Below are positions 1,864 to 27,937 of a stretch of 51,610 nucleotides of DNA, piece by piece; position 1 is the first letter of the stretch, and each line of letters opens with the position of its first letter. The position numbers and the translations under genes were made by a program. Under the pieces are notes generated by a model, which saw only the letters and a program-made list of their open reading frames with translations, did not search any database and had not been told where the DNA came from. Source of the stretch: a virus; the IMG/VR virus record IMGVR_UViG_3300019487_000008, positions 1 through 51,610 of that record. One strand, written 5' to 3'.

Positions 1864-2455
1864 TGTCTGTCTCGCCGGCCGTCTCGTCGGAGGCCGGGTT
1901 GGTGGTGGGGTCGGGCGGCCCCACGAACGGGATGCCGGTTGAGAGGGTGGAACGGACCCGCGACTCCAAGGGGCGCATCCCTGCGAGGACAGGCTTCAAG
2001 GTCTCCACCATGTTGGCCATCTTGCCGATCGAGTCCACGAAGGATTCGGGGAGCTGGACGTTCACGGTGGCGCCTTCGTGGTCACGGCCATCGCTGGGCC
2101 TGGGGAGGGTGCGATCGACCCACCACTTGGCGGTGGAGAGGCGCGTGGGGATGTCCTTGGAATGGAGGCCGTCGTGTTCGAGGACCCGGATGGCCTCGTC
2201 GAGCTGCTCGATCATTCGGAAGCGGGAGACAACGAGGGCGCGGGTGAGCGAGCCGGCGGCCACAGCCTTGCGGTCCTGCATGTCTGGGTCGTGCAGGTCG
2301 AGGCCGCGGACGCGGTTCAACGGCAGGCGGAAGGCAGCGGCGATCTCGTGGTAGGAGACACCCACCGTCAGAAGGCGGGCGATGTGGTCGAGCTGGGTCT
2401 CGGAGAGGTGGATCCGGGAGGGCGCCTCGACGATCCGGCCGGAGACAGGGCTCAT
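1835..2455 (-). CDS. putative terminase small subunit (HTH protein)
   Basis: 206 aa with AGGAGGA SD just upstream. N-terminal HTH-like segment (ETQLDHIARLLTVGVSYHEIAAAFRL). 29-nt overlap with terL. Assignment is by position. Confidence 0.5.
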   Translation of the reverse strand: MSPVSGRIVEAPSRIHLSETQLDHIARLLTVGVSYHEIAAAFRLPLNRVRGLDLHDPDMQDRKAVAAGSLTRALVVSRFRMIEQLDEAIRVLEHDGLHSKDIPTRLSTAKWWVDRTLPRPSDGRDHEGATVNVQLPESFVDSIGKMANMVETLKPVLAGMRPLESRVRSTLSTGIPFVGPPDPTTNPASDETAGETDSEPGPDPAA

Positions 2456-2565
2456 GGGATCCTCCTGGTGTCGAGCAGGGCGGCCGTTGGGTCAGGCTGC
2501 CGGACTGGGGCGCGGCACAGATGTGACCTGGATCACAGGACCGCCACCTGTGCCGCCTCCCCAGC

Positions 2566-2609
2566 CAGCCTCAGCCTTCACGGCAGCCTCAGCCTTCACA
2601 GCAGCCTTC
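2566..2609. repeat. 18-bp tandem repeat (cagcctcagccttcac x2 plus a partial copy)
   Basis: cagcctcagccttcac at 2566-2581 and 2584-2599, then cagccttc at 2602-2609. Confidence 0.8.
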
Positions 2610-2691
2610 GGGCAGGGGAGCCTCCCCGTGAGGGAACTCTACCACGGTCTGGTGTGGGGTTTCCACTACATCATTTCCCGACAACCTTCTT

Positions 2692-2823
2692 GTTGCGCGA
2701 AAAACTTTCTGCCCGTGAGTGTTGCGCGAAATCCCTTGTGGTGGGTGAGGGGTTGCGCGAAAAACACTGTCGTGTGCCCCGCGGGGACCCCTCGACCAGA
2801 GAACCCTTTTGTTCCGCGAAAAG
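2692..2823 (+). promoter_or_regulatory. four phased copies of GTT(G/C)CGCGAAA
   Basis: gttgcgcgaaa starts at 2692, 2721 and 2752; gttccgcgaaa starts at 2811. Spacings are 29, 31 and 59 bp (about 3 or 6 helical turns). The sites lie 240-370 bp upstream of the terS start on the opposite strand. Confidence 0.5.
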
Positions 2824-2882
2824 GATTTCGCTCACGTTCGCCCCTGTGTGGAGGGTGGGGGCGGGTCGTTCCCGCGGGGACC

Positions 2883-2969
2883 TTCAGGCTGTGGCGAAAT
2901 GGGACACCCCACGGGGACCCCCACGAGGACCCCCACGGGGTGTGGCGAAATGGGACACTGCAGCCTGAA
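2883..2969. repeat. 18-bp direct repeat (tgtggcgaaatgggacac x2) bracketed by a 9-bp inverted repeat
   Basis: Direct repeats at 2890-2907 and 2941-2958. Inverted arms ttcaggctg (2883-2891) and cagcctgaa (2961-2969). Interior has ggacccccacg(g/a)g reiterations. Confidence 0.8.
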
Positions 2970-3246
2970 ATGGCGTAGGGAATACCCCACAGTTTGGCCC
3001 ATACCGTAGGGAAATAGCCCCATAATTAACCCCCCCTGGCGCCCCCCCGGTGTCGGTCCTCTGACAGCAGAGCCCAGCCCACCGGGCCGACCCCCCTATA
3101 GGGGGTATATCAGTAAACAAGCCTAACCCCTCGCCACCAAAAGGGAAATACCCCCTAATAGGCAATAGGACGGGGGGGCCTCATGCGTATATGGACGAGC
3201 GTACGTCCCCGCGGGGACGAACATCTGCGAACGTCCGTAGGGTTTT

Positions 3247-3285
<39 letters not shown>

Positions 3286-3345
3286 CTACCTACTAACAAC
3301 CAAAAACCCTTATCAATCGCCAGGGTTTATTGACATACCGATAGA

Positions 3346-3359
3346 CTCCGATATCGGAG
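3346..3359. promoter_or_regulatory. 14-bp perfect palindrome ctccgatatcggag (two TCCGAT half-sites)
   Basis: Read directly. Lies 10 nt downstream of a perfect TTGACA hexamer (3330-3335). Shares the TCCGAT core with the motif clusters at 7368-7413 and 8719-8836. Confidence 0.5.
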
Positions 3360-3395
3360 GGTGGTTTTCCCCACACCCCCGCGTCCCCCCCCATG

Positions 3396-3620
3396 CTTTG
3401 TAGGTTTTTCACCCCGTAGGCTCCCCACCCCGTAGGTCCAACGCTACGTAGGCCTAATACCACGTAGGGTCAGACCCACGTAGGACCACCCACCCGTAGG
3501 CCCCTCACCACGTGGGGTTTTAACCACCGTGGGTCAAACAACACGGGGGGTTTCACACCCGTGGTGCTTTGCACCCGTAGGGCTCCACACCCGTGGGGTT
3601 TTCCCCCCACCCGTAGGGTT
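3396..3620 (+). repeat. iteron-like array: 14 units of (C/A)C(C/A)CGT(A/G)GG core plus a variable ~7-nt spacer, 16-bp register
   Basis: GT(A/G)GG cores start at 3400, 3416, 3432, 3448, 3464, 3480, 3496, 3512, 3529, 3545 (degenerate), 3561, 3577, 3593 and 3613. All are in the same orientation. Confidence 0.85.
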
Positions 3621-3753
3621 TCCCCCACAAGCGTCAACGCTCGTCAACCCCCTGGGGGGCGCTGTGGCACCCTGCCACAGGAGTGGGGCGGAATGGTGCC
3701 CCATAGGGTGGGAAAGCCCCGTTCTAGCGCGCCGTGGGGGCCTCTGGAGTGGC

Positions 3754-3933
3754 ATGGCGATTGCAGTAGAAACCAAATGGCGCGATTGGGCTCGCGAGGC
3801 AGCTTCGGAGGGCGACCGCCGCTGGTGGTCGCGCTGCTGCGGTTTTGTCCGCTCGGCCGAGCGAATCTACAGGGAGATCCGGCTCACGGAGCCCTGCCGG
3901 TGTGACATTTGCAGTGAGCCCGAGAGGAGGTAA
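3754..3933 (+). CDS. hypothetical small Cys-containing protein
   Basis: 59-aa ORF from the internal ATG of track ORF 3529-3933, with GGAG upstream. Its stop sits just before the SD of the next gene. First plausible ORF after the repeat region. Confidence 0.35.
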   Translation: MAIAVETKWRDWAREAASEGDRRWWSRCCGFVRSAERIYREIRLTEPCRCDICSEPERR

Positions 3934-3938
3934 GGACC

Positions 3939-4208
3939 ATGACCTATCGCACCTACAACCCACACGACTGTACCAGTTCCGGCTACGAGGCACGCTCCAC
4001 GTCGCACGGCCGCATCATCGTCACCTACCGCACACGGTGGCGGTGGGAATTGACCGGGCGCTCCTGGAGCCTGCCGAGGGATGCTACGCGGCGCGGGCTC
4101 CGGTATACGGCAGTTGAACTCGCGGAAGCAATCTGCAAGGTAGATGAGTGTCTGGAGGAAGGGCGGAGTCCCGGCCGATTGCTCCGCAGGGGAATCGTCG
4201 TCCGGTGA
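3939..4208 (+). CDS. hypothetical protein
   Basis: 89 aa with strong SD GAGGAGG upstream. No motif recognised. Confidence 0.55.
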   Translation: MTYRTYNPHDCTSSGYEARSTSHGRIIVTYRTRWRWELTGRSWSLPRDATRRGLRYTAVELAEAICKVDECLEEGRSPGRLLRRGIVVR

Positions 4209-4279
4209 GGATCGCCATATCCCCGATCCCCGCGAGCCTGACGGCGCGGGGATGCGGGATCGGGTAAGGAGTAAAAAAC

Positions 4280-4909
4280 ATGACGAGGAACGCGAAGGAG
4301 AACGACTATTGCCCGGTGATTGCCGCCTTCATCTGCTCCTGGAACGATTCGCTCCCCGATCAGGATCGCACTCGGCTACTCACACCGCTGCTGCCGCGGC
4401 TAGTCGGCACGCGTTCTACGCCCGAAATCGAGCAACGCCGCAGCTACCTGGCGCTCGACTGGCTGGTGCGCACGTATACGTCGGCGTGGCTCGACCTCGT
4501 GGAAGCGTGCAAGGCGGATGCCGCAGCCCTGCGCGCGCTGGCACCCGTGCTCGACGAGGCGGCGGCAAAGAGTGCGCTCTCGACGATCCGGCATGCGCGA
4601 GACGCCACGTGCGACGCGATGTACGCCGCGTGGGCCGCGGAAGACCCCTGGGACTGGGACGAGAGGGCTGCGAAAGACGCCACGTGGGCTGCGGCGGACG
4701 CCGCGATGTACGCCGCACAGGCCGCGTGGGCTGCTGGGGAGGCCGCGTGGGACGCGGGGGACGCCGCAAGGGTCGCCCGGGCCGCCGGGGCCGCTAGGGC
4801 CGTTGGGGCCGCCTGGGCCGCCAGGGCCAGGCTGCGTCCGGTCGTCATAGACCTCCAGGCGAGCGCACTCCGGCTCATCGACTCCATGCTCGCAGAGCAC
4901 GCGGCGTAG
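4280..4909 (+). CDS. Ala/Trp/Asp-rich repeat protein
   Basis: 209 aa with SD AAGGAG. The C-terminal half is degenerate helical repeats (MYAAWAAEDPWDW, ATWAAADAAMYAAQAAWAAGEAAWDAGDAARVARAAGAARAVGAAWAAR). All six frames are open here because of composition. Confidence 0.6.
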   Translation: MTRNAKENDYCPVIAAFICSWNDSLPDQDRTRLLTPLLPRLVGTRSTPEIEQRRSYLALDWLVRTYTSAWLDLVEACKADAAALRALAPVLDEAAAKSALSTIRHARDATCDAMYAAWAAEDPWDWDERAAKDATWAAADAAMYAAQAAWAAGEAAWDAGDAARVARAAGAARAVGAAWAARARLRPVVIDLQASALRLIDSMLAEHAA

Positions 4910-4938: not shown

Positions 4939-5661
4939 ATGTCAAATTGGAAAACAATCGAAACCATCCTACGTGCCATGCCGCTCCCTCACTTTTCTAC
5001 GCTGCTGCTGTATGGCCCGCCGGCTAGCGGGAAGACGTGGGCAGCCGAAACGATGGGGCAAGACGGCCCCGTCTTTTCGGTCACCGCGACCCCGGACACG
5101 CCGGCCGCCGAACTGAGGGGATTCTACGCTCCCTCGGCGGAGGGAATCCGCTGGCATGACGGGGTGGCAACCCTCGCAATGCGCGCGGGCCGCCGGCTCT
5201 GCCTCCATGAGGTAGACCTATTCGGAGCCGACTGTCTCGGGTTGCTCTACATGGTCCTTGACTCGCCCCAATCCTGCTCGCTCACGCTGCCGACGGGTGA
5301 GACGCTACGGCCGGCTCCTGGATTCCACGTAGTCTGCACGTCAAATGTCGCGAGCCCCGACGAACTGCCCGACGCAATCCGCTCCCGACTCCCTGTGGCG
5401 CTCCACGTCGGAACGCCGCACGAGTCGGCTTTCGTGGGGCTCCCGAAGGACCTCCAACTGCCCGCACGTACGACCGCGAGTCTCGCCGATCCGGCCCGCC
5501 GGATCGACTTGCGGTCGTGGCTTGCCTTCGCAGCCCTGCGACCGCTTCTCGGCTTGGACGCTGCGAGCGTGGCGGTTCTGGGCCCGCGTGCCGAGGGGAT
5601 ACGAGACGCTCTTACCCTGGGGAGCGCAGCCTCGGACGCCGAGGAGTCGAACAATGAGTGA
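4939..5661 (+). CDS. MoxR-like AAA+ ATPase (AAA_5 type)
   Basis: 240 aa. Walker A GPPASGKT, Walker B RLCLHEVD, sensor/arginine region VVCTSN...AIRSRL. SD AAAGGA upstream. Confidence 0.8.
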   Translation: MSNWKTIETILRAMPLPHFSTLLLYGPPASGKTWAAETMGQDGPVFSVTATPDTPAAELRGFYAPSAEGIRWHDGVATLAMRAGRRLCLHEVDLFGADCLGLLYMVLDSPQSCSLTLPTGETLRPAPGFHVVCTSNVASPDELPDAIRSRLPVALHVGTPHESAFVGLPKDLQLPARTTASLADPARRIDLRSWLAFAALRPLLGLDAASVAVLGPRAEGIRDALTLGSAASDAEESNNE

Positions 5662-7114
5662 CAAGGGCGAAGGGCTGTTCTACTACCCCTATCCAGAACT
5701 ACTAGCGGTGATGCGCCGCCGGTTCAATCGGGGGCGCAAACCCAACTGGGTAACAAAGAAATGGGAAGTCTCACGGACACCCCACCCTCGAATGTCGTTT
5801 CAGGATCGCGTGCTCGAATACGCGTGCCCTTGGACGGCGCGACACGAGGAAGCCCATCTCGCGTTCTCTCGCGAGAGGCCCGCGCGGTCCGGCAGTCCCT
5901 TTGAGCGGGCCTGCCTGAACGCAAGCGAAGACGCACGAGTCAATACGCTTGCCGCGCGGGCTGGGGTTAGCACGTTTGGAGGGCCATTCGTCGCAACTGC
6001 ACTGATGCAAGTCGCGAAAATGCCCGACCCGAGACTCCGGTATCTAGGGGCTCTGTCGGTCACAGGGTCTCTCTACGGGGACGGTCAGACTCTCACTGCG
6101 GAAGCTATAGCTGAGGCATTGAACCTCCCTCCCGATGCTATGCCGATGCTAGCTTCCCATGCTGCGCGGATTCGAGCAGCTGCGGCCGACCCGCAAGTAG
6201 CCGAAGCAGTAGGCCGGGAACTGTACCGCCTGTTCGGCGAGGCTGGCGAGCCTGAACCCGAGTCCAAGCCGAAGCCCGAGTCCGAGTCCGAGTCCGAGTC
6301 CAAGCTTGAGCCTAAGCCTGAGCCCTCCGACAAGAGTAAGGATGACGAGGGCGAGGGGAAGGCTAAGGGAGAATCGAAGCCCTCAAGCCCCAGCCCGCTC
6401 CTGAAGGCTTCAATCACTTGGTACCAGGAAGCAAAGGGAAAGCGGGGCCCTGTTGATGATACGGAGATTGGAGTACTCGCCGATACGGAAATTGGAGTAC
6501 TCGCGCGACCGCCTCGGGTAGTGTGGGGCAAGATGCAATTGCACACGCTGCCGTTGACCCGCCTCACGACCCAGCCTGGAATGCGCTCCGTGACATACCG
6601 TGACTCGGGGGACCGTATTGACCCTGGGCGCCTCGCGCTCCCGAACCGGTTTCGCACCGTGACGAGCGGGCGGACGGGACGGTGGCGTGGAGGGTCGATT
6701 CTCATTGACACGTCTGGGTCAATGAACATGAAAACAGATGTACTACTGCAAGCTATCGCAGGCATGCCTGCGAGCACCGTAGTGGCGATGTATTCCGCGC
6801 GAAGGGGGGGGACCGGCACCGTAACAGTCCTAGCCCGCGGTGGGCGGATCGCCCATCATGAAGTCATTAGGCGGGCGCGGGCCTATGCAGGGCCCGAAAA
6901 CGTAATTGATGGCCCTGCCCTAGAGTGGCTCGGGCACCAACCCGGGCCGCGATGGTGGGTCAGCGACGGGAAAGCAACGGGGGTGCCAGCCGAGCGCCCC
7001 GAGAGCGGGGAATCCGCTCTCCAAGTCAAAGAGGCCGCCGCCATCGCAGCCTACCACCGGATTCGCCGAGTCGAGACGCTTGAAGACTTCGCCGCCCTCA
7101 TGCGGCGCCGCTGA
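5654..7114 (+). CDS. HExxH metallopeptidase-like N-domain + VWA-like C-domain protein (MoxR partner; DUF2201-type architecture)
   Basis: 486 aa from the internal ATG with GAGGAG upstream, overlapping the ATPase stop. N-terminal RHEEAHLAF...LNASEDARVNTL. Acidic/Lys low-complexity linker. C-terminal MIDAS-like ILIDTSGSM and later VSDG. Confidence 0.75.
   Translation: MSDKGEGLFYYPYPELLAVMRRRFNRGRKPNWVTKKWEVSRTPHPRMSFQDRVLEYACPWTARHEEAHLAFSRERPARSGSPFERACLNASEDARVNTLAARAGVSTFGGPFVATALMQVAKMPDPRLRYLGALSVTGSLYGDGQTLTAEAIAEALNLPPDAMPMLASHAARIRAAAADPQVAEAVGRELYRLFGEAGEPEPESKPKPESESESESKLEPKPEPSDKSKDDEGEGKAKGESKPSSPSPLLKASITWYQEAKGKRGPVDDTEIGVLADTEIGVLARPPRVVWGKMQLHTLPLTRLTTQPGMRSVTYRDSGDRIDPGRLALPNRFRTVTSGRTGRWRGGSILIDTSGSMNMKTDVLLQAIAGMPASTVVAMYSARRGGTGTVTVLARGGRIAHHEVIRRARAYAGPENVIDGPALEWLGHQPGPRWWVSDGKATGVPAERPESGESALQVKEAAAIAAYHRIRRVETLEDFAALMRRR
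6278..6301 (+). repeat. (gagtcc)x4 hexanucleotide repeat inside the VWA-protein linker
   Basis: Encodes ESESESES; read directly. Confidence 0.85.
6458..6505 (+). repeat. 24-bp tandem duplication inside the VWA-protein linker
   Basis: gatacggagattggagtactcgcc followed by gatacggaaattggagtactcgcg. Encodes DTEIGVLA twice. Confidence 0.9.
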
Positions 7115-12260: not shown

Positions 12261-12578
12261 ATGGCAGACATGATCGACGACGGGTCCTGGGAGAGCCGGG
12301 TTCTCCGATTCATCATGGAGTCTGGAGACGCAGGAATGACCTGCGACGAAGTGGAGAAGGCGACCGGCGGCGTCCACCAGACTGTCTCCGCGCGCATCCA
12401 CTCTCTTCGAGGGAAGAACCTGATCGTGGCTTCAGGCAGGACCAGACTCAGCCGAAACTTCAAAGAGCAAAAGGTATGGGTCGGCAGGAGAGTCGCGGCC
12501 TCTCCTCAAGGGCCTCAGGGGCCTCAGGGGCCTCAGGTGGTGGTAGACGCTACTGGCGGACCCAAACACGACCTGTGA
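12261..12578 (+). CDS. winged-helix (MarR-like) DNA-binding protein
   Basis: 105 aa from the internal ATG. RVLRFIMESGDAGMTCDEVEKATGGVHQTVSARIHSLRGKNLIV. C-terminal QGPQGPQGPQ. Confidence 0.5.
   Translation: MADMIDDGSWESRVLRFIMESGDAGMTCDEVEKATGGVHQTVSARIHSLRGKNLIVASGRTRLSRNFKEQKVWVGRRVAASPQGPQGPQGPQVVVDATGGPKHDL
12504..12539 (+). repeat. 9-bp tandem repeat cctca(a/g)g(g/t)g x4
   Basis: Units at 12504-12512, 12513-12521, 12522-12530 and 12531-12539. Encodes the (QGP)n tail of the wHTH protein. Confidence 0.85.
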
Positions 12579-13231
12579 AGGGCCCTGTGAAACCCCTCCC
12601 CGAAACCTGCCGCGGCTGCCCTGCCTACGGATGGGGCGAAGGCTTCGTAGAGCCTGAAGGCCCCACCGACGCCACCTTCCTTTTCATCGGCCAAGGTCCA
12701 GGCAAGCAAGAAGCCATGTTCTCCCGGCCGTTCTTTCCCATGGCGCCGGCCGGCCAGCGCCTCGGGTACTGGCTCCATCGCTCCGGTCTAGGGCGGCACG
12801 AGGTCCTCATCGGAAACACGGTCCAGTGTTGGCTTCCAGCCCGGAAGGTCCGGTCTCTGGAGGCAGGTGGGCTCCCGGGAGCCGGACCAGGAGCAGCTTC
12901 CCAGGGCAATCAAGCGACATTCCCGACCCAGAGGGAGGCTGCTGGAAACCGGGAGCCCACCATCGCTGAGCAGCAGGCGTGTTGGGATCGCTACGTGGGG
13001 CCTTGGCTACGTCGTTTGCTGGAAGAGAACCCACGCCGCCACCTCATCGCCCTTGGCCAGTCGGCCTTCAAGTTCCTTTCCAACATGGACCCGAGAGCGT
13101 TTGAGCGGAACCTCGGGGTCACCCTCCAGGTAGAGTTGCCGCCGTCACCACTCGCGGTCGGTGACCTGCCTCCTGACCCCGAGGTTCCCGCCCCTCTCAC
13201 CCAGGCCCCTCTCGCCCAGGAGACCCCTTGA
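12575..13231 (+). CDS. uracil-DNA glycosylase superfamily protein, family-4-like with non-canonical motifs
   Basis: 218 aa. GTG start in a GTGA overlap. CRGCPAYGWG...FLFIGQGPGKQEAMFSRPFFPMAPAGQRL...VLIGNTVQCWLP matches the family-4 layout, but motif A is GQGPG and the motif-B position reads PPSPL. Has a ~45-aa insert. Confidence 0.65.
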   Translation: MKGPVKPLPETCRGCPAYGWGEGFVEPEGPTDATFLFIGQGPGKQEAMFSRPFFPMAPAGQRLGYWLHRSGLGRHEVLIGNTVQCWLPARKVRSLEAGGLPGAGPGAASQGNQATFPTQREAAGNREPTIAEQQACWDRYVGPWLRRLLEENPRRHLIALGQSAFKFLSNMDPRAFERNLGVTLQVELPPSPLAVGDLPPDPEVPAPLTQAPLAQETP

Positions 13232-15978: not shown

Positions 15979-16286
15979 GACGCCTTATCGACCCCGCCTT
16001 GCACGCCCTGGCCGCCGCGCTGGCCGTGGCACCCGTCGCTCTGTGGCCGCGGTGGTGGGTGGCGGGGCTGGTGTGGATGGTGGCTGGTTATCTGCGCGAA
16101 ATTGAGCAGCACCGATGGCAAATCCATGATGCTGCTCTCTACAAGATGCCCCACAAGATGCCCGGTTGGCTCGACCGCCGCGTGCTCGCCCGCCTACGGA
16201 CGCACTGGCGCAACGACGTGGCCGAGGCCGCCGGCTGGGGGGTCGGGGCCGCGGTCGCGGTGGAGGTAGTACGGCTGTGGAGCTGA
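15975..16286 (+). CDS. hypothetical membrane protein
   Basis: 103 aa. ATGA overlap start. Hydrophobic segments at both ends. Confidence 0.45.
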   Translation: MRRLIDPALHALAAALAVAPVALWPRWWVAGLVWMVAGYLREIEQHRWQIHDAALYKMPHKMPGWLDRRVLARLRTHWRNDVAEAAGWGVGAAVAVEVVRLWS

Positions 16287-16753
16287 TCCGCGAGGCGTGT
16301 ATCAGCGAGTGCGGCAAGTACCGTTACTGGCTGAGCAGGCGATGGGGCGATGACGGGGGCTCCGTGCTCTGGATCATGCTCAATCCGAGTACCGCAGACG
16401 CGACGCGAGACGACCCGACGATCCGGCGCTGCACGTCCTTCGCTCGTCGGTGGGGCTACGACGGCATTCATGTGGTGAACCTGTTTGCGTGGAGGGAAAC
16501 CCGACCACAGCTCTTGGGGTTGGCCGCGGATCCCGTTGGGCCAATGACCGACGAACACATCAAGCGACTGTCGCAGCTCTCCTCAGTGATCGTGGCTGCA
16601 TGGGGCGCACATGGAGAGAGGTATAACTGGCGCGTACAAGAGGTGCTTCGGTTGTTGGAAGGACGAGAGATCCGCTGCCTAGGCACGACGCGAGCCGGGC
16701 ATCCAAAGCACCCACTCTACTCACCGGCCGCCATGCATGTGCCGTGGCCATAG
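16277..16753 (+). CDS. DUF1643-family protein
   Basis: 158 aa from GTG. YRYWLSRRW...LWIMLNPSTADATRDDPTIRRC..FARRWGYDGIHVVNLFAWRET...VIVAAWGAHG...RCLGTTRAGHPKHPLY matches the DUF1643 signature as I recall it. Confidence 0.6.
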   Translation: MELIREACISECGKYRYWLSRRWGDDGGSVLWIMLNPSTADATRDDPTIRRCTSFARRWGYDGIHVVNLFAWRETRPQLLGLAADPVGPMTDEHIKRLSQLSSVIVAAWGAHGERYNWRVQEVLRLLEGREIRCLGTTRAGHPKHPLYSPAAMHVPWP

Positions 16754-16769
16754 CGGTGGAGGTAACGAA

Positions 16770-17594
16770 ATGGATCACCCTCTAGTCATCTATCATGGCA
16801 ACTGTTACGACGGGTTCACCGCTGCATGGGTAGCGCGCCAGGATTACGAGCACTTCGATCTGCACGCTGCAAAGTACGGCGAGCAGCCCCCTGACGTGCG
16901 TGGGCGCACGGTTTATGTGCTCGACTTCTCCTACCCACGAGAGACGCTGCTCCGCATGAAATCCGAGGCGAAGTGGCTGCGCGTTCTCGACCACCACAAG
17001 ACGGCCGCCGCAGACCTCGATGGCCTCGACTTCTGCGAGTTCGACATGGAGCGGAGTGGGTGCCGGATGGCGTGGGACCACTTCTTTGGACCCGAAAAGG
17101 AGGCTCCGCCCCAGCTTCTCCTTTGGATTGAGGACCGCGACCTCTGGCGTTTCCGCTACGGCGACGACACGAAGATGGCTCACGCCTACATCGCCTCACT
17201 CCCGATGACGATGGCGGAATGGGATCGCGCCTTCGCGATGGAGCCGGCGCAGATCGTCGAGTCTGGCAAGGCGATCCGGCGCTACATCGACACCTACTGC
17301 GAGAAGGCAGCGCAAGAGACCCGCATCGTCCACTGGGCGAACGAGCGGGCGGCAATCGTTAACGTTCCTTATCAAAACGCCTCGGAGATGGCTGGCGTCG
17401 TGCTAGAGAAGAACCCCGATTGCAATTTCTCGGTCGGATGGTTCCAGCGCGCAGACGGGCGCGTGCAGTTCTCACTGCGCTCGCGCAGCGACTTCGACGT
17501 TTCTGTGGTCGCGAAGCAGTACGGCGGCGGAGGCCACGCTGGCGCGGCAGGCTTCGATCTCCCGTTAGACGAAGCCTTGAACCTGATTCGATAG
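16770..17594 (+). CDS. DHH/DHHA1-family phosphoesterase (NrnA/RecJ-like)
   Basis: 274 aa with GGAGG upstream. HGNCYDGFTAAW, VLDFS, LDHHKT (DHH motif), GGGGHAGAAGF (GGGH motif). Confidence 0.75.
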   Translation: MDHPLVIYHGNCYDGFTAAWVARQDYEHFDLHAAKYGEQPPDVRGRTVYVLDFSYPRETLLRMKSEAKWLRVLDHHKTAAADLDGLDFCEFDMERSGCRMAWDHFFGPEKEAPPQLLLWIEDRDLWRFRYGDDTKMAHAYIASLPMTMAEWDRAFAMEPAQIVESGKAIRRYIDTYCEKAAQETRIVHWANERAAIVNVPYQNASEMAGVVLEKNPDCNFSVGWFQRADGRVQFSLRSRSDFDVSVVAKQYGGGGHAGAAGFDLPLDEALNLIR

Positions 17595-21738: not shown

Positions 21739-21917
21739 CGCCCCCCATCCACACTACCGAGCAGCAGCGGCAGATCGCCCTGGAGGTACGCAGACTCGTG
21801 AAAGCTGCCTACGACGCTGGGCTCCGTGTCATTGTCCACGATGCCCCTGTCTACAGAGACGACAAGCGGCGCTGGGTGGTCAATGAGATTCGCGTCTGGC
21901 TTGACGAAGACGCTTGA
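21735..21917 (+). CDS. hypothetical protein
   Basis: 60 aa. ATGA overlap start. Confidence 0.4.
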   Translation: MTPPIHTTEQQRQIALEVRRLVKAAYDAGLRVIVHDAPVYRDDKRRWVVNEIRVWLDEDA

Positions 21918-21973
21918 CTACCCAGACCAGAAGTGCGAATGTCCTAATGGTCAACAACAGAGGAGACCACTCG

Positions 21974-23221
21974 ATGAATCTCAAGATCCTGTGCTTGTCT
22001 CTGCTGATCGCCACGTCGGCGTCAGCCGTTGCAATCAGCCCCGGAGACGGCTCCGGCAACACCAGCCCCCCTGGCGTACTCAGCGCCGCCTGGTTCGCCT
22101 TCTGCCGCTTCGATGATGGAGCGGGCGGGTCAACCGACGAAGGGGCATGGCACATCGAGGACGGCTGGTTCCTCGCACCCGAGAACAACCTCATCGCTCC
22201 GACCACAGGGATCCGCTGTGCTGGGACCCTCTACCCGACCGTGGAGACCTACCAGCTCGACGGCTGGACGGACATCGGCGGCACCGACCAGTGCAACATC
22301 GCGACGAACCTCAGGCTCCGGCGCGTCTCCCCAGTGCCCTCTGTCCCGACTGTTCCCGTGGCGCAGATTTCCGTCGAGACTGGGGACGTGGGCTACCTCG
22401 TCGGCGCAGGCGCCAGGAGGACGGCCAACACCCTCCCGGGGCCGGACTGCTTCATCAACGACCCGCCCTGGCCGCTCCTCCAGACGCCCTTCATCGAGGC
22501 CACGACAGACCACCAGACCCGATGGGCGGAGAACAGGCCCGAGATCAAGTGGTTCACGATCGGAGGGACCATCACCGGCTGCCCGTGCCCTCCGACGGGA
22601 ACGACCGCCGCCTGCGTTGGAAATGCAGGCTGCCCCCTAGAACAGAACTCCGCCACGAGGATCTACTGGGATCCGATCTCCGACCCGAATGCGCTCCCCA
22701 ACGAAGGCATCGGTCTGCCGGAGGGCGACATCGGCGCCGGCTTCATGCGGATCAACAGCGAGGGCCCCGAGCTGATCGGCCTCAACGAGTCGTCCGCCTT
22801 CTGCGCCCTGCTCACTTCCCCCGTAGACGCAGCGGTCTACGACATGAATCAGTTGATCCAACTCCCGGCCTACTACAACCAGATCCAGGACATCATCGCT
22901 GACACCGACAGCGATGGCGTGCGCAACTGGTACGACAACTGCAAGAACCACGCGAACGCAGGCCAGCAGGACGCTGACGGAGACGACATCGGAAACCGCT
23001 GCGACCCGGACTTCGACCAGAACGGCATCGTGGGCGGCTCCGACTTCGTGACGCTCCAGGCGTGCTTCGGGAGCCACCCACCGATCTCAGGAGGGCCCGC
23101 GTCGGACCTGACCTGTGAGGAGTCCGACCTCGACTCCAACGGTGTGGTCGGGTCGTCCGACTACATCATCCTGCGAGCCTTCTTCGGGATGCAGAACGGG
23201 CCGGCCGGGACCTGCGGCTAG
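21974..23221 (+). CDS. secreted protein with thrombospondin type-3 and dockerin-like Ca-binding repeats
   Basis: 415 aa from ATG with GAGGAG upstream. Signal peptide MNLKILCLSLLIATSASAVA. DTDSDGVRNWYDNC..N..QQDADGDDIGNRCDPDFDQNG (TSP3-like). DQNGIVGGSDFVTLQACFG and DSNGVVGSSDYIILRAFFG (dockerin/EF-hand-like). Confidence 0.65.
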   Translation: MNLKILCLSLLIATSASAVAISPGDGSGNTSPPGVLSAAWFAFCRFDDGAGGSTDEGAWHIEDGWFLAPENNLIAPTTGIRCAGTLYPTVETYQLDGWTDIGGTDQCNIATNLRLRRVSPVPSVPTVPVAQISVETGDVGYLVGAGARRTANTLPGPDCFINDPPWPLLQTPFIEATTDHQTRWAENRPEIKWFTIGGTITGCPCPPTGTTAACVGNAGCPLEQNSATRIYWDPISDPNALPNEGIGLPEGDIGAGFMRINSEGPELIGLNESSAFCALLTSPVDAAVYDMNQLIQLPAYYNQIQDIIADTDSDGVRNWYDNCKNHANAGQQDADGDDIGNRCDPDFDQNGIVGGSDFVTLQACFGSHPPISGGPASDLTCEESDLDSNGVVGSSDYIILRAFFGMQNGPAGTCG

Positions 23222-23234
23222 CCCACACGCTGAC

Positions 23235-23280
23235 GCACGCTGGGGGCGCGCCACGACTCCTGATGTCGCCCCCAGCGTGC
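23235..23280 (+). terminator. 14-bp perfect GC-rich hairpin after the secreted-protein gene (no U-tract)
   Basis: gcacgctgggggcg (23235-23248) pairs with cgcccccagcgtgc (23267-23280), with an 18-nt loop. No T-run follows, so terminator function is uncertain. Confidence 0.4.
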
Positions 23281-23313
23281 CCTGGCGCCCACGCGGCGCA
23301 GAGAGAGGACCCC

Positions 23314-23502
23314 ATGCCCGTACCTAACATGAAACTTCTGATTCGTGAGGCTCGCCGGCTTGGCGCAGAAGCCTACCGCCACGGCGGCGACACCATTCTG
23401 TATCACCCAACTTGGGGCCGGAAGGTCTCATGTTCTATGGGCAGAAAAGACGGGAGCCGCATCCTGTTGAAGCTGGTGAAGCAGCTTCGTGAGGCCAGAT
23501 GA
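23314..23502 (+). CDS. hypothetical small protein (weak YcfA/HicA-like pattern)
   Basis: 62 aa with GAGAGAGGA upstream. Coupled by ATGA to the polymerase exonuclease ORF. Confidence 0.45.
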   Translation: MPVPNMKLLIREARRLGAEAYRHGGDTILYHPTWGRKVSCSMGRKDGSRILLKLVKQLREAR

Positions 23503-24131
23503 AGGTACTCCTCACCCCGCTCCTCCACCCTGCCGCCATCGTTCGCGGTCGTTGGAACATGGAACCAGCCATGCAACGCTACCTCCAACGAGTCAAAGAC
23601 AACCCATTCCCCACCCCTCTCGACCTGAGCCAGGCCCCCGGCCCAGCCATCTTGTATCCGACCCTCTCGGACCTGGACGCTTTCGGCGCAGAGGCCCGCC
23701 GCCTCAAGGCCGTGGCCTTGGACATAGAAACCGGAGGCCCGGCCCTGCTGTGCGTGGGGTTTGCAGCCATGACCCCTCCAGGCGAGGAGCCCGCCACCGT
23801 CGGTTTGAAGCTGTGCCTCAGGTTCCGGCGCCAAGGCGGGCGACTCTACTGGAGCGATTGGCCCAGCCACGAGGCAGCGACCCAGTGGCTCTACGACCTG
23901 TTGGCCGACGCCACCGTGGACAAAGTGTTCCATAACGGGATCGCATTCGATGTTCCATACTTGGAGGAACTGGGGTTCACGGTGGCTGGCCAGCTCTGGG
24001 ACACCATTCTGATGGCTCACGCGGCATACTCAGAACTTCCGAAGCGCCTCCAGTTTCTTTCGACCCTGTTTTTAGGTTTCCCAGTGTGGAAGACCATGGT
24101 GAAAGACGAAGCCATCGAAGAGAAGGGGTGA
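23499..24131 (+). CDS. polA: family A DNA polymerase, fragment 1: 3'-5' exonuclease ExoI + ExoII
   Basis: 210 aa. ALDIET (ExoI), VFHNGIAFDVPYL (ExoII), WDTILMAH. Ends with TGA before ExoIII. Confidence 0.8.
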   Translation: MKVLLTPLLHPAAIVRGRWNMEPAMQRYLQRVKDNPFPTPLDLSQAPGPAILYPTLSDLDAFGAEARRLKAVALDIETGGPALLCVGFAAMTPPGEEPATVGLKLCLRFRRQGGRLYWSDWPSHEAATQWLYDLLADATVDKVFHNGIAFDVPYLEELGFTVAGQLWDTILMAHAAYSELPKRLQFLSTLFLGFPVWKTMVKDEAIEEKG

Positions 24132-24137
24132 GAGACA

Positions 24138-24635
24138 ATGACGAAGATTTCTGGGCCTAGGGATCGGGTGATTGACGACCTGTTCCGCAACTGCTGTGAG
24201 GCGGCCAAGGTGGTTTTCGAGCGCGAGGGCCACTTCTACTCGAAGCTGCATCTGATATTCAAAGACGGCAGCATGGCCATCTTGGGGGGCGGATCCATGC
24301 ACGAGATGATCGAAGAGGCCAGAAAGCTGTCGAACGACGGCCTACTCGCAGTCTTCGGGATCGCCGAAGCGTGGTCCGTGTTTCGCCACGCTGAGGACCC
24401 AGACCTGGAAACCGTCAACCCGAGCGAAGCCTCCGACCGCCAAGAAGTCCTCCACGCCTTTCTGGAGACCCGCGAAGGCCGAAGGCTCCTGGTGACCTGG
24501 AACATCATCCGCCGAGACGAAGCAGGATGGCCTTCCTTGGGTGAGCCAGAGACCAACACAACCGGCCCCGGCATGAAGTTCGGCGGGCGCTGCGTGGGGA
24601 TTTTCCCCATATTTCACGGCGCCTCGATCCACTAA
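24138..24635 (+). CDS. hypothetical protein inserted within the split polymerase gene
   Basis: 165 aa with its own ATG 6 nt after the TGA and GGGGTGAG upstream. Same reading frame as both polymerase fragments. No motif recognised. Confidence 0.55.
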   Translation: MTKISGPRDRVIDDLFRNCCEAAKVVFEREGHFYSKLHLIFKDGSMAILGGGSMHEMIEEARKLSNDGLLAVFGIAEAWSVFRHAEDPDLETVNPSEASDRQEVLHAFLETREGRRLLVTWNIIRRDEAGWPSLGEPETNTTGPGMKFGGRCVGIFPIFHGASIH

Positions 24636-24647
24636 ACTACTCCCACG

Positions 24648-26096
24648 GTGCCCAAGGCCAACCAGGGGTGGGTGGACGCGGAGTTCCAGTTCGTCCGGTT
24701 GCCGGACGAGACCCTGGGGGTCTACAACCTCTGGGACACCGAAGCCACAGCGCGGCTCGCCCACTGCCTCCACCGGGAGCTGGTCCAGACGGGCCAGCTC
24801 TCATGGTTCCAGGAGGGCCCCCAAGCTGTCCAGCCTGCGGTTCTGGCGATGCAGCGGCGCGGCCTTCTGTTGGATCAGTCGGCCCACGACACCTCTCGGG
24901 CTCGCCTCCACGATGAGTTGCACGAAACCGACCGCAGCCTTCGCGCCCATACCCCACCAGGCATCAGCTTCGACTCTCCCACTCAGCTCTCCAAGTGGCT
25001 GTTCAACCCCCCCACCGAGGGTGGTCTCGGCCTCAAGCCGGCCAAAATCACCGACAAGGGCCACCGGCAAGTTGACTTGGAGTCGCTGGTGAGGGTCCTC
25101 CAGGGACTCCGCAAGCGAGACGCCGCCGCCCGCCCGATCCTGGAGCAACTCTTCCACCGGAGCCGACTCAAGACCCTGCTGGAGAGGTATTTCGATCCCA
25201 TGGTGGGGCACGACGGCCGCGTCCGCGCCACAGTCAAGATGTTCGGCACCAAGACCTTCAGGTTCTCGTATGCGCGGCCGGCCCTCCAACAATTTCCCGA
25301 CAAGCTGCGTCGGATGTTCATAGCCTCCCCAGGCCATCACTTCGTCTCTTCGGACTATTCTCAGCTAGAGGCCCGGATCATGGCTGTGCTGGCCCAGGAC
25401 CGAGTGAGCCTCGACGCTTTCACTCGTGGTGAGGACATCCACGACCTGAACTCCAGGGACCTGTTTGGGTGGTCGCCGTCAGACTGGGAAGCCCTCAATC
25501 CAACGCAACGCAAGGCGGCTCGCAACTTCGCAAAAACCTTCCTGTATGGTCTTCAGTACGGAGGCCGAGCCGAAACCATGAAAATGAAGGTCTTTTGCCC
25601 GTGCCCCTTGTGTGTGGAAGAGAACCCTCCCACCCTCGACCTGAAGCGCAGTGAGATCGCCCTTGCTGAGCGTCGGTGGATGGCCCGGCACCCTGCGGTG
25701 CCTCGCTACCAAAGGCAAGTCTCCGAGCAGGTCCGTTCAACCCGGTCCTACCTTCACCCACTGGGGGTGCGCCGCTACTTCGCCAAACCCTGGGGCAACG
25801 AGCTGGAACGAGAGGTCAAGAACGTCCCTATGCAGATGGGCGCGGCCATCCTGATGGTCCAGGCCCAGGTCAAGTTGCACCAACTAGGAGTCCCGGTGTG
25901 CCTTCAGCACCACGACTCGTTCTTGTGTGAGGTGCCTGACGAGCAGATCGCCGAGACCTCGACCACCTTGCGGGAGGTCATGGAAGCCCCGGTCCCCCAG
26001 ATGGGAGGGGTGAGGTTTCCCGTCACAATCTCAGTAGGCAGGAATTGGGCCGACCGCACCATCGACAACCCTGAAGGCTTGGGAGCCTCCACATGA
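24648..26096 (+). CDS. polA: family A DNA polymerase, fragment 2: ExoIII + polymerase domain
   Basis: 482 aa. YNLWDTEATARL (ExoIII), SSDYSQLEARIMA (motif A), RKAARNFAKTFLYGLQYGG (motif B), LQHHDSFLCEV (motif C). Only a GTG start, with no clear SD. Confidence 0.8.
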   Translation: MPKANQGWVDAEFQFVRLPDETLGVYNLWDTEATARLAHCLHRELVQTGQLSWFQEGPQAVQPAVLAMQRRGLLLDQSAHDTSRARLHDELHETDRSLRAHTPPGISFDSPTQLSKWLFNPPTEGGLGLKPAKITDKGHRQVDLESLVRVLQGLRKRDAAARPILEQLFHRSRLKTLLERYFDPMVGHDGRVRATVKMFGTKTFRFSYARPALQQFPDKLRRMFIASPGHHFVSSDYSQLEARIMAVLAQDRVSLDAFTRGEDIHDLNSRDLFGWSPSDWEALNPTQRKAARNFAKTFLYGLQYGGRAETMKMKVFCPCPLCVEENPPTLDLKRSEIALAERRWMARHPAVPRYQRQVSEQVRSTRSYLHPLGVRRYFAKPWGNELEREVKNVPMQMGAAILMVQAQVKLHQLGVPVCLQHHDSFLCEVPDEQIAETSTTLREVMEAPVPQMGGVRFPVTISVGRNWADRTIDNPEGLGAST

Positions 26097-27937
26097 GACA
26101 CCTGCGGCTAGTCCACAGGGAGCTGACCGCCGAAGAGTGCAAACTCGTCTTGTCCCAATGGGAGCCCAAGATGGAGCAACTCTTCCGGGCGGCCGAGGCC
26201 ACTCCCCCTGACGCCTGGAGCCAGGACTACATCAAGCAGGCCAAGCTGATCCACACCATCGGGGTCTGCTGGGAGGCCATGCCCGACGAGAAGCGGCAGT
26301 CGGCCCAAGCCCGCGCCCTCCGGTATGTGCCTATGCTCTCAGCGAACCCTCGGGCCTTCGAGGTGTTCATGGACATGATCGTTCAGCGGTGGAGCAGCCG
26401 GCCCTACGAAGACATCGCCCGAGCCCTCCAGGTGGGCCTCTTCAAAGAGCAGGACTTCGTAGCCCTCGACGAAGAGAAACCCTACTTGGAGGTGGGAGGT
26501 TGGCTCGGGGACTATGTGGACTGGGCCAAGGCCGGCGAGTGCCCCATAGCGTTCCACTTCTGGGCTGCTGTGGCGTTGATTGGCGCGGTCGCCAAGTTTC
26601 GGGTCTCCATCGACCGCAGGGCCTATCGACTGAGACTCAACCACTATGTTTTTCTGTTTGGCCCGCAGGGGACCGGGAAAGGCCAAGCCAAGTCCGCCAT
26701 GCTCGACATCCTCAGGAGGCTGAATCGAATCATCGACCCGGAACACCCTGAGGACGCCCACCACGCTCGGATCCGCCTGATCCCAGAGGACACCAACCAA
26801 TCCGCCATGCTCAGACTCCTGAAGCCTGAGCCAGCCCATAGCGCCAAGGTCGGCTCGCTGGAGTCAGCCATGGTGGATTCGACGGGATTCCTGGTGCTGG
26901 ATGAGTTGGCCACTTTCTTCTCTAAGGACGCCTTCCGGATTTCCAAGACCTTGCCTTTTTTGGTGACCGCCTACAGCGAAGAGGAGTACGACTACTACAC
27001 CGTCACAGGCGGTCACATCCATCTGGAGAACCTGGCCCTCTCCATGCTAGGGTGCTCGACCCTGGACTGGATCAAAGACGCCATCACTCCGCTCTTGATG
27101 CACGGCGGGTTCCTGGACAGGACGCAACTGATCTACCGCACCGAGACCCCCCGCGTCTACTCGACGCCAGGATTCCTGGATCCTGTGCGAGCCATTCAGC
27201 TCGCTCACGGGTTGCTGGAACTGGCCACCCTGGAGGAGCCAGTGTTGATGGCTGGGGACCTCGGAGCCCTGGAGTGGTACGACGATTGGTACCGCAAGAT
27301 CCCCGTCACCGATCACATAGAAATGGCCCGCCCAGGCCAAGAGGGGGACTCGTTCTCCACCTCCTCGAAGCGGCAAGCCAACCACCTGTGGAAGCTGGCG
27401 GCCATCCTGTCGATCTCAGAGGGGACCCACTACCCCTGGATCACTCGCGCCCACATGGAGAAGGCCGCGAAGCTACTGAAACTGGAGCGTGAGCACTCCG
27501 CCAGCTTCTTTCAGATGGTGTCGAGGTCTCCTGAAGGCGCCATCCTAGAGAGACTCCTCCAGGTGCTCTGGCGCATCGGCAAAGGCGACGCGGTGCGCTG
27601 GGCAGACCTCATTTCCCGAGTGAAAGCGTGGAAGGGCTTGCGCGGCAGATCGCGGCTCCTGTTGGAGTACCTCTACACCATGCAGGACGCCGGCATGGTG
27701 AAACTCGTCAAGATGGTCGGGAAAACCGGGCAACCGACCCGGGGCTTTGCGATCCGCCCTCTCGTGGAGCCCAGGGTGCAACTCGAACTCCCTGCGACCC
27801 CGGACCCGGCCCTGCTACCTGACGAGGGCCCTGAGGTCGTGCAGGCCACCGGCGGGCCCATGGAGTCCGAAGCCAAGAGGCGTCGCCGGCGGGAATGGCC
27901 TGATCCACAGGATCCCGATTTAGACGAGGGCACCTGA
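26093..27937 (+). CDS. DUF3987-like P-loop ATPase, putative replicative helicase
   Basis: 614 aa. ATGA overlap with the polymerase. Walker A FGPQGTGKG, Walker B FLVLDELATFF. The overall layout resembles DUF3987/SF3-type helicases. No primase motifs seen. Confidence 0.55.
   Translation: MRHLRLVHRELTAEECKLVLSQWEPKMEQLFRAAEATPPDAWSQDYIKQAKLIHTIGVCWEAMPDEKRQSAQARALRYVPMLSANPRAFEVFMDMIVQRWSSRPYEDIARALQVGLFKEQDFVALDEEKPYLEVGGWLGDYVDWAKAGECPIAFHFWAAVALIGAVAKFRVSIDRRAYRLRLNHYVFLFGPQGTGKGQAKSAMLDILRRLNRIIDPEHPEDAHHARIRLIPEDTNQSAMLRLLKPEPAHSAKVGSLESAMVDSTGFLVLDELATFFSKDAFRISKTLPFLVTAYSEEEYDYYTVTGGHIHLENLALSMLGCSTLDWIKDAITPLLMHGGFLDRTQLIYRTETPRVYSTPGFLDPVRAIQLAHGLLELATLEEPVLMAGDLGALEWYDDWYRKIPVTDHIEMARPGQEGDSFSTSSKRQANHLWKLAAILSISEGTHYPWITRAHMEKAAKLLKLEREHSASFFQMVSRSPEGAILERLLQVLWRIGKGDAVRWADLISRVKAWKGLRGRSRLLLEYLYTMQDAGMVKLVKMVGKTGQPTRGFAIRPLVEPRVQLELPATPDPALLPDEGPEVVQATGGPMESEAKRRRRREWPDPQDPDLDEGT

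Follow-up and report, generated by a model that had tools for sequence, protein, structure and literature searches.

Split phage polymerases have already been described in the LUZ24-like phages, in the S-SBP1-like cyanophages and, for gp43, in T4-related phages. In the LUZ24-like Pseudomonas phages (Bruynoghevirus), gp25 is annotated as 'DNA polymerase exonuclease subunit' and gp34/gp36 as 'DNA polymerase part II'. The family B enzyme gp43 is split in some T4-related Aeromonas phages, and the nrdA gene of Aeromonas phage Aeh1 is reportedly split by mobE, a free-standing homing endonuclease, in what Friedrich and colleagues are said to have described in 2007 as 'genes-in-pieces'. A polymerase in two genes with an unannotatable small open reading frame (ORF) between them has also been published for a Zobellviridae-like phage, where the authors left it open whether an intron or a fission is involved. 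In S-SBP1-like T7-like cyanophages, the exonuclease and polymerase of a family A enzyme (PolA) lie in separate genes, interpreted as a true fission that arose by a frameshift of 1 nucleotide (nt) (Czernecki et al. 2023, NAR, PMC10201439); the complex predicted by AlphaFold2 (AF2) superposes on an unsplit relative, and this was reported as the first such PolA case (PMC10201439). The same study describes polymerases in which a UDG is fused to PolA, found in N4-like phages (cluster 17), SPO1 and others (Czernecki et al. 2023, PMC10201439). Here we describe a split PolA in the full 51,610-nt stretch of IMG/VR record IMGVR_UViG_3300019487_000008, called the window below, in which the predicted enzyme is divided inside its 3'-5' exonuclease fold, between motifs ExoII and ExoIII, and the gap is occupied by an ORF of 165 amino acids (aa), ORF2. 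The features concerned are as follows; all coordinates are those of the window, on the plus strand unless stated.

23499-24131, plus strand: polymerase N piece, 210 aa, ATG start, TGA stop
23520-23549, plus strand: LLHPAAIVRG, a UDG motif-B strand, near the start of the N piece
23715-23732, plus strand: ExoI, ALDIET, in the N piece
23931-23963, plus strand: ExoII, HNGIAFDVPYL, in the N piece
24129-24650, plus strand: split junction, in the order TGA, 6 nt, ORF2, TAA, 12 nt, GTG
24138-24635, plus strand: ORF2, 165 aa, ATG start, TAA stop
24648-26096, plus strand: polymerase C piece, 482 aa, GTG start, TGA stop
24723-24758, plus strand: ExoIII, YNLWDTEATARL, in the C piece, with YNLWD at 24723-24737
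25350-25379, plus strand: motif A, SDYSQLEARI, in the C piece
25521-25562, plus strand: motif B, RNFAKTFLYGLQYG, in the C piece
25593-25613, plus strand: CPCPxC cluster, invariant, in the C piece
25902-25934, plus strand: motif C, LQHHDSF, in the C piece, reading HHDS

A first-pass annotation, made from the letters and their ORFs, had described three colinear ORFs in one common frame, separated by spacers of 6 and 12 nt, with ExoI and ExoII on the first and ExoIII and the polymerase motifs on the third; the ORF listing and the motif coordinates bear this out. The window has all three DnaQ-like exonuclease motifs, ExoI (DxE), ExoII (Nx2-3(F/Y)D) and ExoIII (Yx3D), on two polypeptides, and all three motifs of family A polymerases, A (D..SQ.E), B (R..AK...YG) and C (HD), the last in the form HHDS and not HDE. 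PolA is not encoded here as a single polypeptide: stop codons lie at 24129-24131 (N piece) and 24633-24635 (ORF2), and the same break is found in 26 loci. The N piece ends in an acidic tail (...EEKG, then TGA), and the C piece begins VPKAN.

Profile searches join the two pieces almost end to end. Against the PHROG DNA polymerase profile phrog_17, the N piece matches positions 647-788 (E 4.5e-13) and the C piece positions 796-1239 (E 1e-77), and the C piece contains a full DNA_pol_A domain (PF00476, E 1e-44, profile positions 7-381 of 381). The Pfam 3'-5' exonuclease profile PF01612 matches the N piece alone at positions 59-129 with 20.5 bits, which is under the cutoff, and an in-silico fusion of N and C pieces at positions 59-172 of 173 with 24.4 bits, over the cutoff of 23.6. 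The fused sequence also aligns to the Klenow fragment in one stretch that spans the junction. A phmmer search of PDB with the exonuclease region alone was unsuccessful. On these matches, one predicted family A polymerase is divided into two adjoining halves, the N and C pieces.

The nearest-relative comparison that had been suggested for this locus was carried out on roughly 100 related loci taken from collections of viral, genome and metagenome sequences, and both pieces were located in each locus. A single-sequence search for related viral loci gave nothing, and an alignment-based search found them; related loci and sequences carry L and P labels below. With the fused N and C sequence as query, about 46 relatives were found at 36-52% identity, all of them 414-528 aa long and covering the C piece only, and one has to go down to about 23-30% identity to meet full-length single-chain relatives. 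Twenty-six loci (21 distinct sequences) have a clade-level C piece together with an N piece, and the break falls at the identical residue position in every one (26/26), with a gap that is either empty or filled by unrelated genes. The N pieces of the clade end ...WK(acidic)...GKG (or ...E(E/D)GKG) followed by a stop, and the C pieces begin (M/V)xxKY..NT.H.F...YN..D. The window N piece is 43-46% identical to those of L001 and L002, and an alignment of 22 N pieces retains DxE, HNG..D and the C-terminus. Two more distant loci, L064 and L072 (28-31% identity), are split at the same spot. The sequence is uninterrupted there in L005, L012, L069, L071, L073, L075/L076, L083 and L095 (25-29% identity) and in P0054 and P0067.

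Conservation of the active-site residues is strong on both sides of the break. In 47 C pieces, the ExoIII residues Y26, N27 and D30 are at least 90% conserved, and D236, K296, Y300, H422 and D423 are invariant in the 47 clade sequences. Wherever the rate of synonymous substitution (dS) is unsaturated, the ratio of the nonsynonymous rate to it (dN/dS) is 0.05-0.19 for N and C pieces (0.06-0.19 for the N piece), and the N and C genes are adjacent and co-oriented in every locus. Both pieces look functional, as genes under purifying selection. The comparison of loci shows an evidently ancient gene fission, fixed across the whole clade; recent fission, one of the explanations offered in the first-pass annotation, is wrong because the break is common to relatives down to about 28-31% identity. 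As in genes-in-pieces, the break lies within conserved coding sequence, between ExoII and ExoIII, and both ORFs are intact and under selection. The catalytic residues of one exonuclease site are thus carried by two polypeptides and kept by selection on both, so that a heterodimer with a composite proofreading site would be the economical reading.

Some sequence features of the polymerase pieces and of their distant relatives may be recorded here. The clade consensus of motif C is QMHDSF, and distant unsplit relatives have HDA (P0054) or HDD (P0067). The CPCPxC cluster (C317, C319 and C322, with H348 nearly invariant) sits between motifs B and C in all 47 clade sequences, perhaps as a metal-binding insertion of the fingers. 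In a distant relative, L110 (MW202554.1, a deposited complete podovirus genome), positions 1727-4364 hold a gene for UDG and a complete exonuclease (ExoI-III) and a separate polymerase gene about 150 nt away, so that its PolA split falls after ExoIII. Another distant relative that is unsplit at the ExoII/ExoIII spot, L083, has an intein-like stretch in the polymerase domain (CFDGETEILT ... VTGNCQNW, at about 5080-6790), just before motif A; it was recognized by reading only.

The N stop and the C start lie -79 to 1577 nt apart across the 26 loci, and the gap contents, given below for individual loci including the two more distant ones, are unrelated between loci.

L002, L003, L004, L025 and L029: no gene
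L001: 140-aa ORF, function unassigned
L026: ORF of about 140 aa, function unassigned
L055/56: helix-turn-helix (HTH) protein and HNH_3 endonuclease
L062: HNH_3 and AP2 endonuclease
L060: HTH_17 protein
L052: topoisomerase-type zinc-ribbon protein and VWA protein
L064: DnaQ-like exonuclease (by reading) and small ORFs
L072: SLOG-like protein (by reading)
L046/L047: three or four small ORFs

Within the clade, the junction is a hotspot of variable insertions, and turnover of these contents is evidently fast. Among the seven loci whose C pieces reach 63% identity or more with that of L002 (L002 itself, L004, L026, L028, L029, L060 and L061), the gap is closed in L002, L004 and L029; in the other four it measures about 70-410 nt and holds mutually unrelated contents. 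The cargo-free junctions consist of TAAATG in L002 and of an overlapping stop and start in L004 and L025, and by their sequence these are typical translationally coupled operon junctions. The pair L046 (1718-4700) and L047 (167-2900) has near-identical C pieces (dS 0.009) and diverged N pieces (dS 0.47), and the gaps differ by one ORF, which places a recombination boundary in the junction. The exonuclease-like ORF of L064 (6700-7401, 233 aa) has DnaQ/epsilon-like motifs (DFETTG ... HSAEADA), again by reading only; if it is read rightly, this locus carries a second, complete proofreading-type exonuclease gene within the split one. In the window, no promoter, terminator or Rfam match was found inside the gap, and a search for target-site duplications or terminal repeats around ORF2 gave only short repeats at chance level.

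ORF2 resembles its neighbors in base composition (GC of 0.60, 0.43 and 0.77 at codon positions 1, 2 and 3) and has a Shine-Dalgarno (SD)-like GGTGA 4 nt upstream of its own ATG. It has itself no Pfam, PHROG or PDB sequence match (a local Pfam scan was empty), a profile search of PDB gave nothing meaningful, and tblastn against named phage genomes found no match. An exhaustive HMMER search yielded six weak homologs, and a profile search widens the family to 45 proteins of about 150-200 aa with the conserved motifs EAW, PSEHPDRRE and GRF. Fifteen of the 45, ORF2 not among them, match phrog_11268 (function unknown). An AF2 prediction from the single sequence was unusable (predicted local distance difference test, pLDDT, 44), which the family alignment remedied, giving an alpha/beta model with a pLDDT of 87.8 and a predicted template modeling score (pTM) of 0.80. 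The structure search proposed for this ORF was run on that model with Foldseek and returned no fold counterpart in PDB (best E 0.08, poor TM-scores). Against predicted viral structures, the significant matches (E <= 0.001) are all to unnamed or uncharacterized phage proteins, among them a protein of Mycobacterium phage Catdawg (TM 0.70).

The one named relative comes from profile comparison. The ORF2-family profile aligns by hhalign to residues 247-380 of lambda Ea47 (probability 91.8%, E 7e-7, identity about 14%), and a precomputed Pfam match links ORF2 to PF26900 (Phage_lambda_Ea47), flagged as weak. Lambda Ea47 is 410 aa long, whereas the 165-aa ORF2 matches only its C-terminal third. On these alignments, ORF2 appears to be related to the C-terminal domain of lambda Ea47, which we take to be the product of a non-essential early-left gene of the b region. 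In five other phage contexts, members of the family occur in arrays of small early ORFs away from any polymerase gene, and the family profile found no member in any other fetched polymerase locus. Because the family is independent of polymerases and the gap contents are variable, ORF2 is most likely a lineage-specific accessory passenger in the inter-subunit gap and not part of the polymerase, as far as its relatives can indicate. The absence of HNH, GIY-YIG and LAGLIDADG motifs, noted at first sight, held up in profile and fold searches, which found no match to these or any other nuclease family and no nuclease fold. A PD-(D/E)xK-type nuclease had been considered for ORF2 on account of conserved E, D and R residues, and was dropped for want of fold or profile support. 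As to neighborhoods, lambda ea47 (L116, 2190-3419) is annotated beside an HNH endonuclease (ea31) and an AAA ATPase (ea59), and in L108 and L112 members of the ORF2 family lie a few genes downstream of AAA/nSTAND3-like ATPases.

A second break of a similar kind affects a UDG-like domain. The gene for its core lies far upstream of the N piece:

12476-13231, plus strand: free-standing UDG-like core, family-4 UDG-like (PF03167, E 6e-13)
12608-12622: CxxC motif of the core
12689-12703: motif A of the core, GQGPG

PF03167 covers positions 2-102 of 141 in this core, which is without a motif-B strand, and it is with this missing strand (LLHPAAIVRG) that the N piece opens. The core matches the UDG parts of P0050 and L002 by tblastn (E 1e-35). 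In L052 and L055/56, ExoI/II and an entire family-4 UDG-like domain are fused within a single ORF, and the homologous strand ends that domain; the L052 domain aligns to residues 11-162 of the Thermus thermophilus enzyme (T. thermophilus UDG, PDB 1UI0), including motif B (HPAYLLR). In most clade members, as in the window, the UDG core has its own gene, which ends immediately ahead of the motif-B strand. It is always upstream and on the same strand, at 37-43 nt in the fused cases, 225-2,221 nt in most split ones and 10,349 nt in the window, and the order in the unsplit P0067 is UDG-Exo-Pol. In L065 (3360-3670) and P0050, an in-frame, low-complexity insert of about 110 aa joins the UDG core to the HP strand; the DNA of the insert also has a 97-aa ORF in another frame, and the insert may be a read-through of a former inserted gene.

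We put at roughly 0.75 the probability that the window encodes a two-subunit polymerase with an exonuclease site assembled in trans and with ORF2 as cargo. Under this explanation, the replicative polymerase would be a UDG-Exo-Pol family A enzyme encoded in pieces. ExoI and ExoII and the first two-thirds of the 3'-5' exonuclease fold come from the N gene, and the last exonuclease helix or helices with ExoIII, covalently joined to the polymerase domain, from the C gene; the two polypeptides would reassemble by fragment complementation into a heterodimer whose proofreading site is built from both chains. The tightly packed genes would be co-transcribed, and the GTG of the C piece, 12 nt past the ORF2 stop, would fit termination-reinitiation. 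This GTG is without an SD, which is unremarkable because about half of the window genes lack one, and its position agrees with the GTG/ATG starts of relatives. HNH homing endonucleases sit in the gap in two lineages, and on that account an endonuclease insertion is a plausible origin of the split, in line with other genes-in-pieces. The boundary between the subunits has since become a landing pad and recombination boundary for mobile or accessory ORFs, and ORF2 would be an early accessory protein resembling the Ea47 C-domain, expressed with the replication genes and dispensable for the polymerase. The second, similar break sets the UDG core apart from the motif-B strand that is now the N-terminus of the exonuclease piece.

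A bolder version, which we regard as tentative and rather doubtful, is an obligate, interlocked three-piece replicase in which both breaks were homing sites and are now portable hotspots that shuffle accessory genes. The pieces would be the UDG core, the motif-B strand with ExoI/II, and ExoIII with the polymerase domain. Endonucleases would have fissioned an ancestral single-chain UDG-PolA at both break points, and neighboring subunits would be held together by completing shared folds, the proofreading site being composite. The Ea47-like gene would be an accessory gene shuffled into the middle of the replication operon of the window.

Several points weigh against the two-subunit explanation or parts of it. 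The association of N and C pieces and their exonuclease activity are drawn from comparative data, and motif C reads HHDS and not the usual HDE, so that normal catalysis is assumed. ORF2 has no close homolog, so selection on it cannot be measured, and it might have a lineage-specific role with the polymerase. The gap of the window holds neither an endonuclease nor insertion scars; among the relatives, a homing endonuclease at the break, of the HNH_3 type, is found in the homologous gap of L055/56 and L062 only, and it is from these two that an endonuclease-driven origin is plausibly deduced. Adding the motif-B strand to the UDG core barely lifts the Pfam score (from 44.2 to 44.5 bits), and the suggested complementation of the UDG-like fold by this strand comes from alignment.

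Other explanations differ in what becomes of the two pieces and of ORF2. The pieces might not reassemble at all, with the C piece acting alone as a proofreading-deficient polymerase and the N piece serving as a separate scaffold (for example, one docking the UDG-like protein) or decaying as a remnant. There is a precedent in CCPol, which retains just three helices of the exonuclease and acts with other partners (Czernecki et al. 2023, PMC10201439). However, conservation of the ExoIII Y and D on the C piece is 90% or higher and ExoI/II are conserved on the N piece, a pattern that is hard to explain without a shared active site; purifying selection on the N piece is as strong as on the C piece, and the adjacency and common orientation of the two genes are general, so we consider independent pieces unlikely. 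A still smaller probability goes to ORF2 as a third component dedicated to the split polymerase, be it as subunit, chaperone or regulator. Its position exactly between the pieces, with spacers of 6 and 12 nt, common orientation and matched codon composition, would suit such a role, but the gap is without a gene in at least five clade loci and holds unrelated ORFs in others, the other fetched polymerase loci contain no member of the ORF2 family, which elsewhere occurs among small early genes, and ORF2 appears homologous to a domain of lambda Ea47. The multi-subunit enzyme proposed in the first-pass annotation therefore fares differently in its two parts: the exonuclease site in trans is favored by the comparative data, and ORF2 as a third subunit or regulator is not, since the gap is empty or unrelated elsewhere.

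A fused enzyme, made by readthrough or suppression of the stops, by ribosomal bypass or by RNA or protein splicing, was suggested by the common frame of the three ORFs and by a C-piece GTG without an SD, and it is very improbable. Three same-strand genes share a frame by chance in 1 of 9 cases, and the frame relation is not kept in relatives: N and C pieces share a frame in 8 of the 21 distinct loci (about one third), and the near-identical pair L046/L047 differs in this respect. Two different stops, TGA and TAA, would have to be suppressed, yet no tRNA gene, hence no suppressor tRNA, was found in the window, and all three stop codons are in normal use (TGA/TAG/TAA, 17/10/4). Bypass would have to span 516 nt, roughly ten times the 50-nt hop of T4 gene 60. 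Programmed readthrough or bypass was rejected on these grounds: an unconserved frame relation, a suppressor tRNA not found, and standard stop usage. A group I or group II intron was set aside as well. The non-coding sequence around ORF2 amounts to no more than 6 and 12 nt, relatives with zero gap retain a stop and a start, and a search of 22500-27000 against Rfam gave no match at E <= 1 apart from a spurious match to a small nucleolar RNA. Neither piece has a Hint/intein Pfam match, in keeping with the initial impression that there is no intein and no room for a group I intron. A split intein of the fractured-gene type (Dassa et al. 2009) was rejected too: intein halves are of about 100 and 35 aa, and the pieces abut at phrog_17 positions 788/796 with no room for them and with no polymerase residues lost where they meet. 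Sequencing or assembly error, or a chimeric contig, has a negligible probability. The case for it is that the window is one metagenomic genome without a close relative (best C-piece identity to any relative, 52%); against it, an independent ENA/MEGAHIT contig (51,626 nt) is identical over 6,498 nt with one mismatch outside the region, so that error is excluded as far as assemblies can show, given that this contig may derive from the same reads. An identical break point in 25 further loci, drawn from many samples, the normal coding composition of ORF2 and the confident folding of its family also speak against an artefact.

The window represents essentially the whole genome, of about 51.6 kilobases (kb) and 64% GC, of an uncultured tailed phage, and it also encodes a large terminase, a major head protein and a head-tail adaptor. 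Identity to the polymerases of named phages is no higher than about 26%. Genes around the polymerase pieces include the following.

16166-16753: DUF1643 protein (E 8e-44)
16737-17594: DHHA1-domain protein
21914-23221: 435-aa protein with a thrombospondin type 3 repeat
26093-27937, plus strand: DUF3987 primase/helicase-like gene (PF13148, E 1.8e-11; phrog_14296, DNA primase, E 5e-23)

The DUF3987 gene overlaps the polymerase stop (ATGA), and L002 has the same neighbor after its polymerase. The other three lie between the UDG core and the N piece; the 435-aa protein looks secreted and is an odd gene for a replication module. One clade-type polymerase fragment, P0049 (530 aa, 52% identical, from a metagenome-assembled genome of Planctomycetes), is fused to a MiaB/RimO radical SAM enzyme, which is either a chimeric assembly or a hint at a host or prophage remnant.

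If the pieces reassemble as proposed, the locus would represent a natural fragment-complementation system for a replicative polymerase, which could aid split-polymerase engineering and the study of communication between exonuclease and polymerase domains. It would also be a clear comparative example of how a fission can settle into a lasting boundary between subunits and later turn into a hotspot of mobile genes and of recombination between phages. For gene callers and polymerase-based virome surveys, such polymerases will appear as 'exonuclease-less' enzymes of about 475 aa unless the upstream piece is recognized.

Among the described systems, LUZ24 is similar to the window in having its family A polymerase in separate exonuclease and polymerase genes on one strand, there with eight ORFs between them (including the HNH gene gp30), and in its bidirectional early/late genome layout. 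It differs in that gp25 holds ExoI-III and the break lies at the boundary between the exonuclease and polymerase domains, whereas the break in the window falls between ExoII and ExoIII. The 10 kb of LUZ24 that were inspected show no UDG-like domain, and part II is further interrupted by the endonuclease gene gp35, which presumably lies within a group I intron. LUZ24 was rejected as a true relative, having no significant sequence similarity to the clade and a break after ExoIII. The Zobellviridae-like case matches the window in gross layout and belongs to a different phage lineage.

The S-SBP1-like cyanophages also have PolA in two adjacent genes, but there whole domains are parted, the genes overlap and there is no cargo; in the window, the cut is inside the exonuclease fold and much older, the cargo is variable, and a second cut lies in the UDG-like domain. 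Aeh1 nrdA and gp43 are alike in that a conserved, essential enzyme of replication or nucleotide metabolism is cut within a folded region into two ORFs whose products have to reassemble, with a selfish ORF at the cut. They differ in enzyme family, and the window has an unrelated gene in place of the endonuclease. The UDG-PolA fusion polymerases have a family-4 UDG-like domain ahead of exonuclease and polymerase, in the exact order seen in the unsplit P0067 and in the partly fused L052 and L055, whereas in the window the UDG core is separate, only its last HP-motif strand is on the exonuclease piece, and motif A reads GQGPG and not GEGPG. In the literature, we found no report of a PolA cut inside its proofreading domain with one active site on two gene products, nor of such a cut combined with a second intra-domain cut in a UDG-like module. 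The split described here stands apart from the known ones in the combination of a cut within the exonuclease fold, its age, its widely varying cargo and a second cut within a domain.

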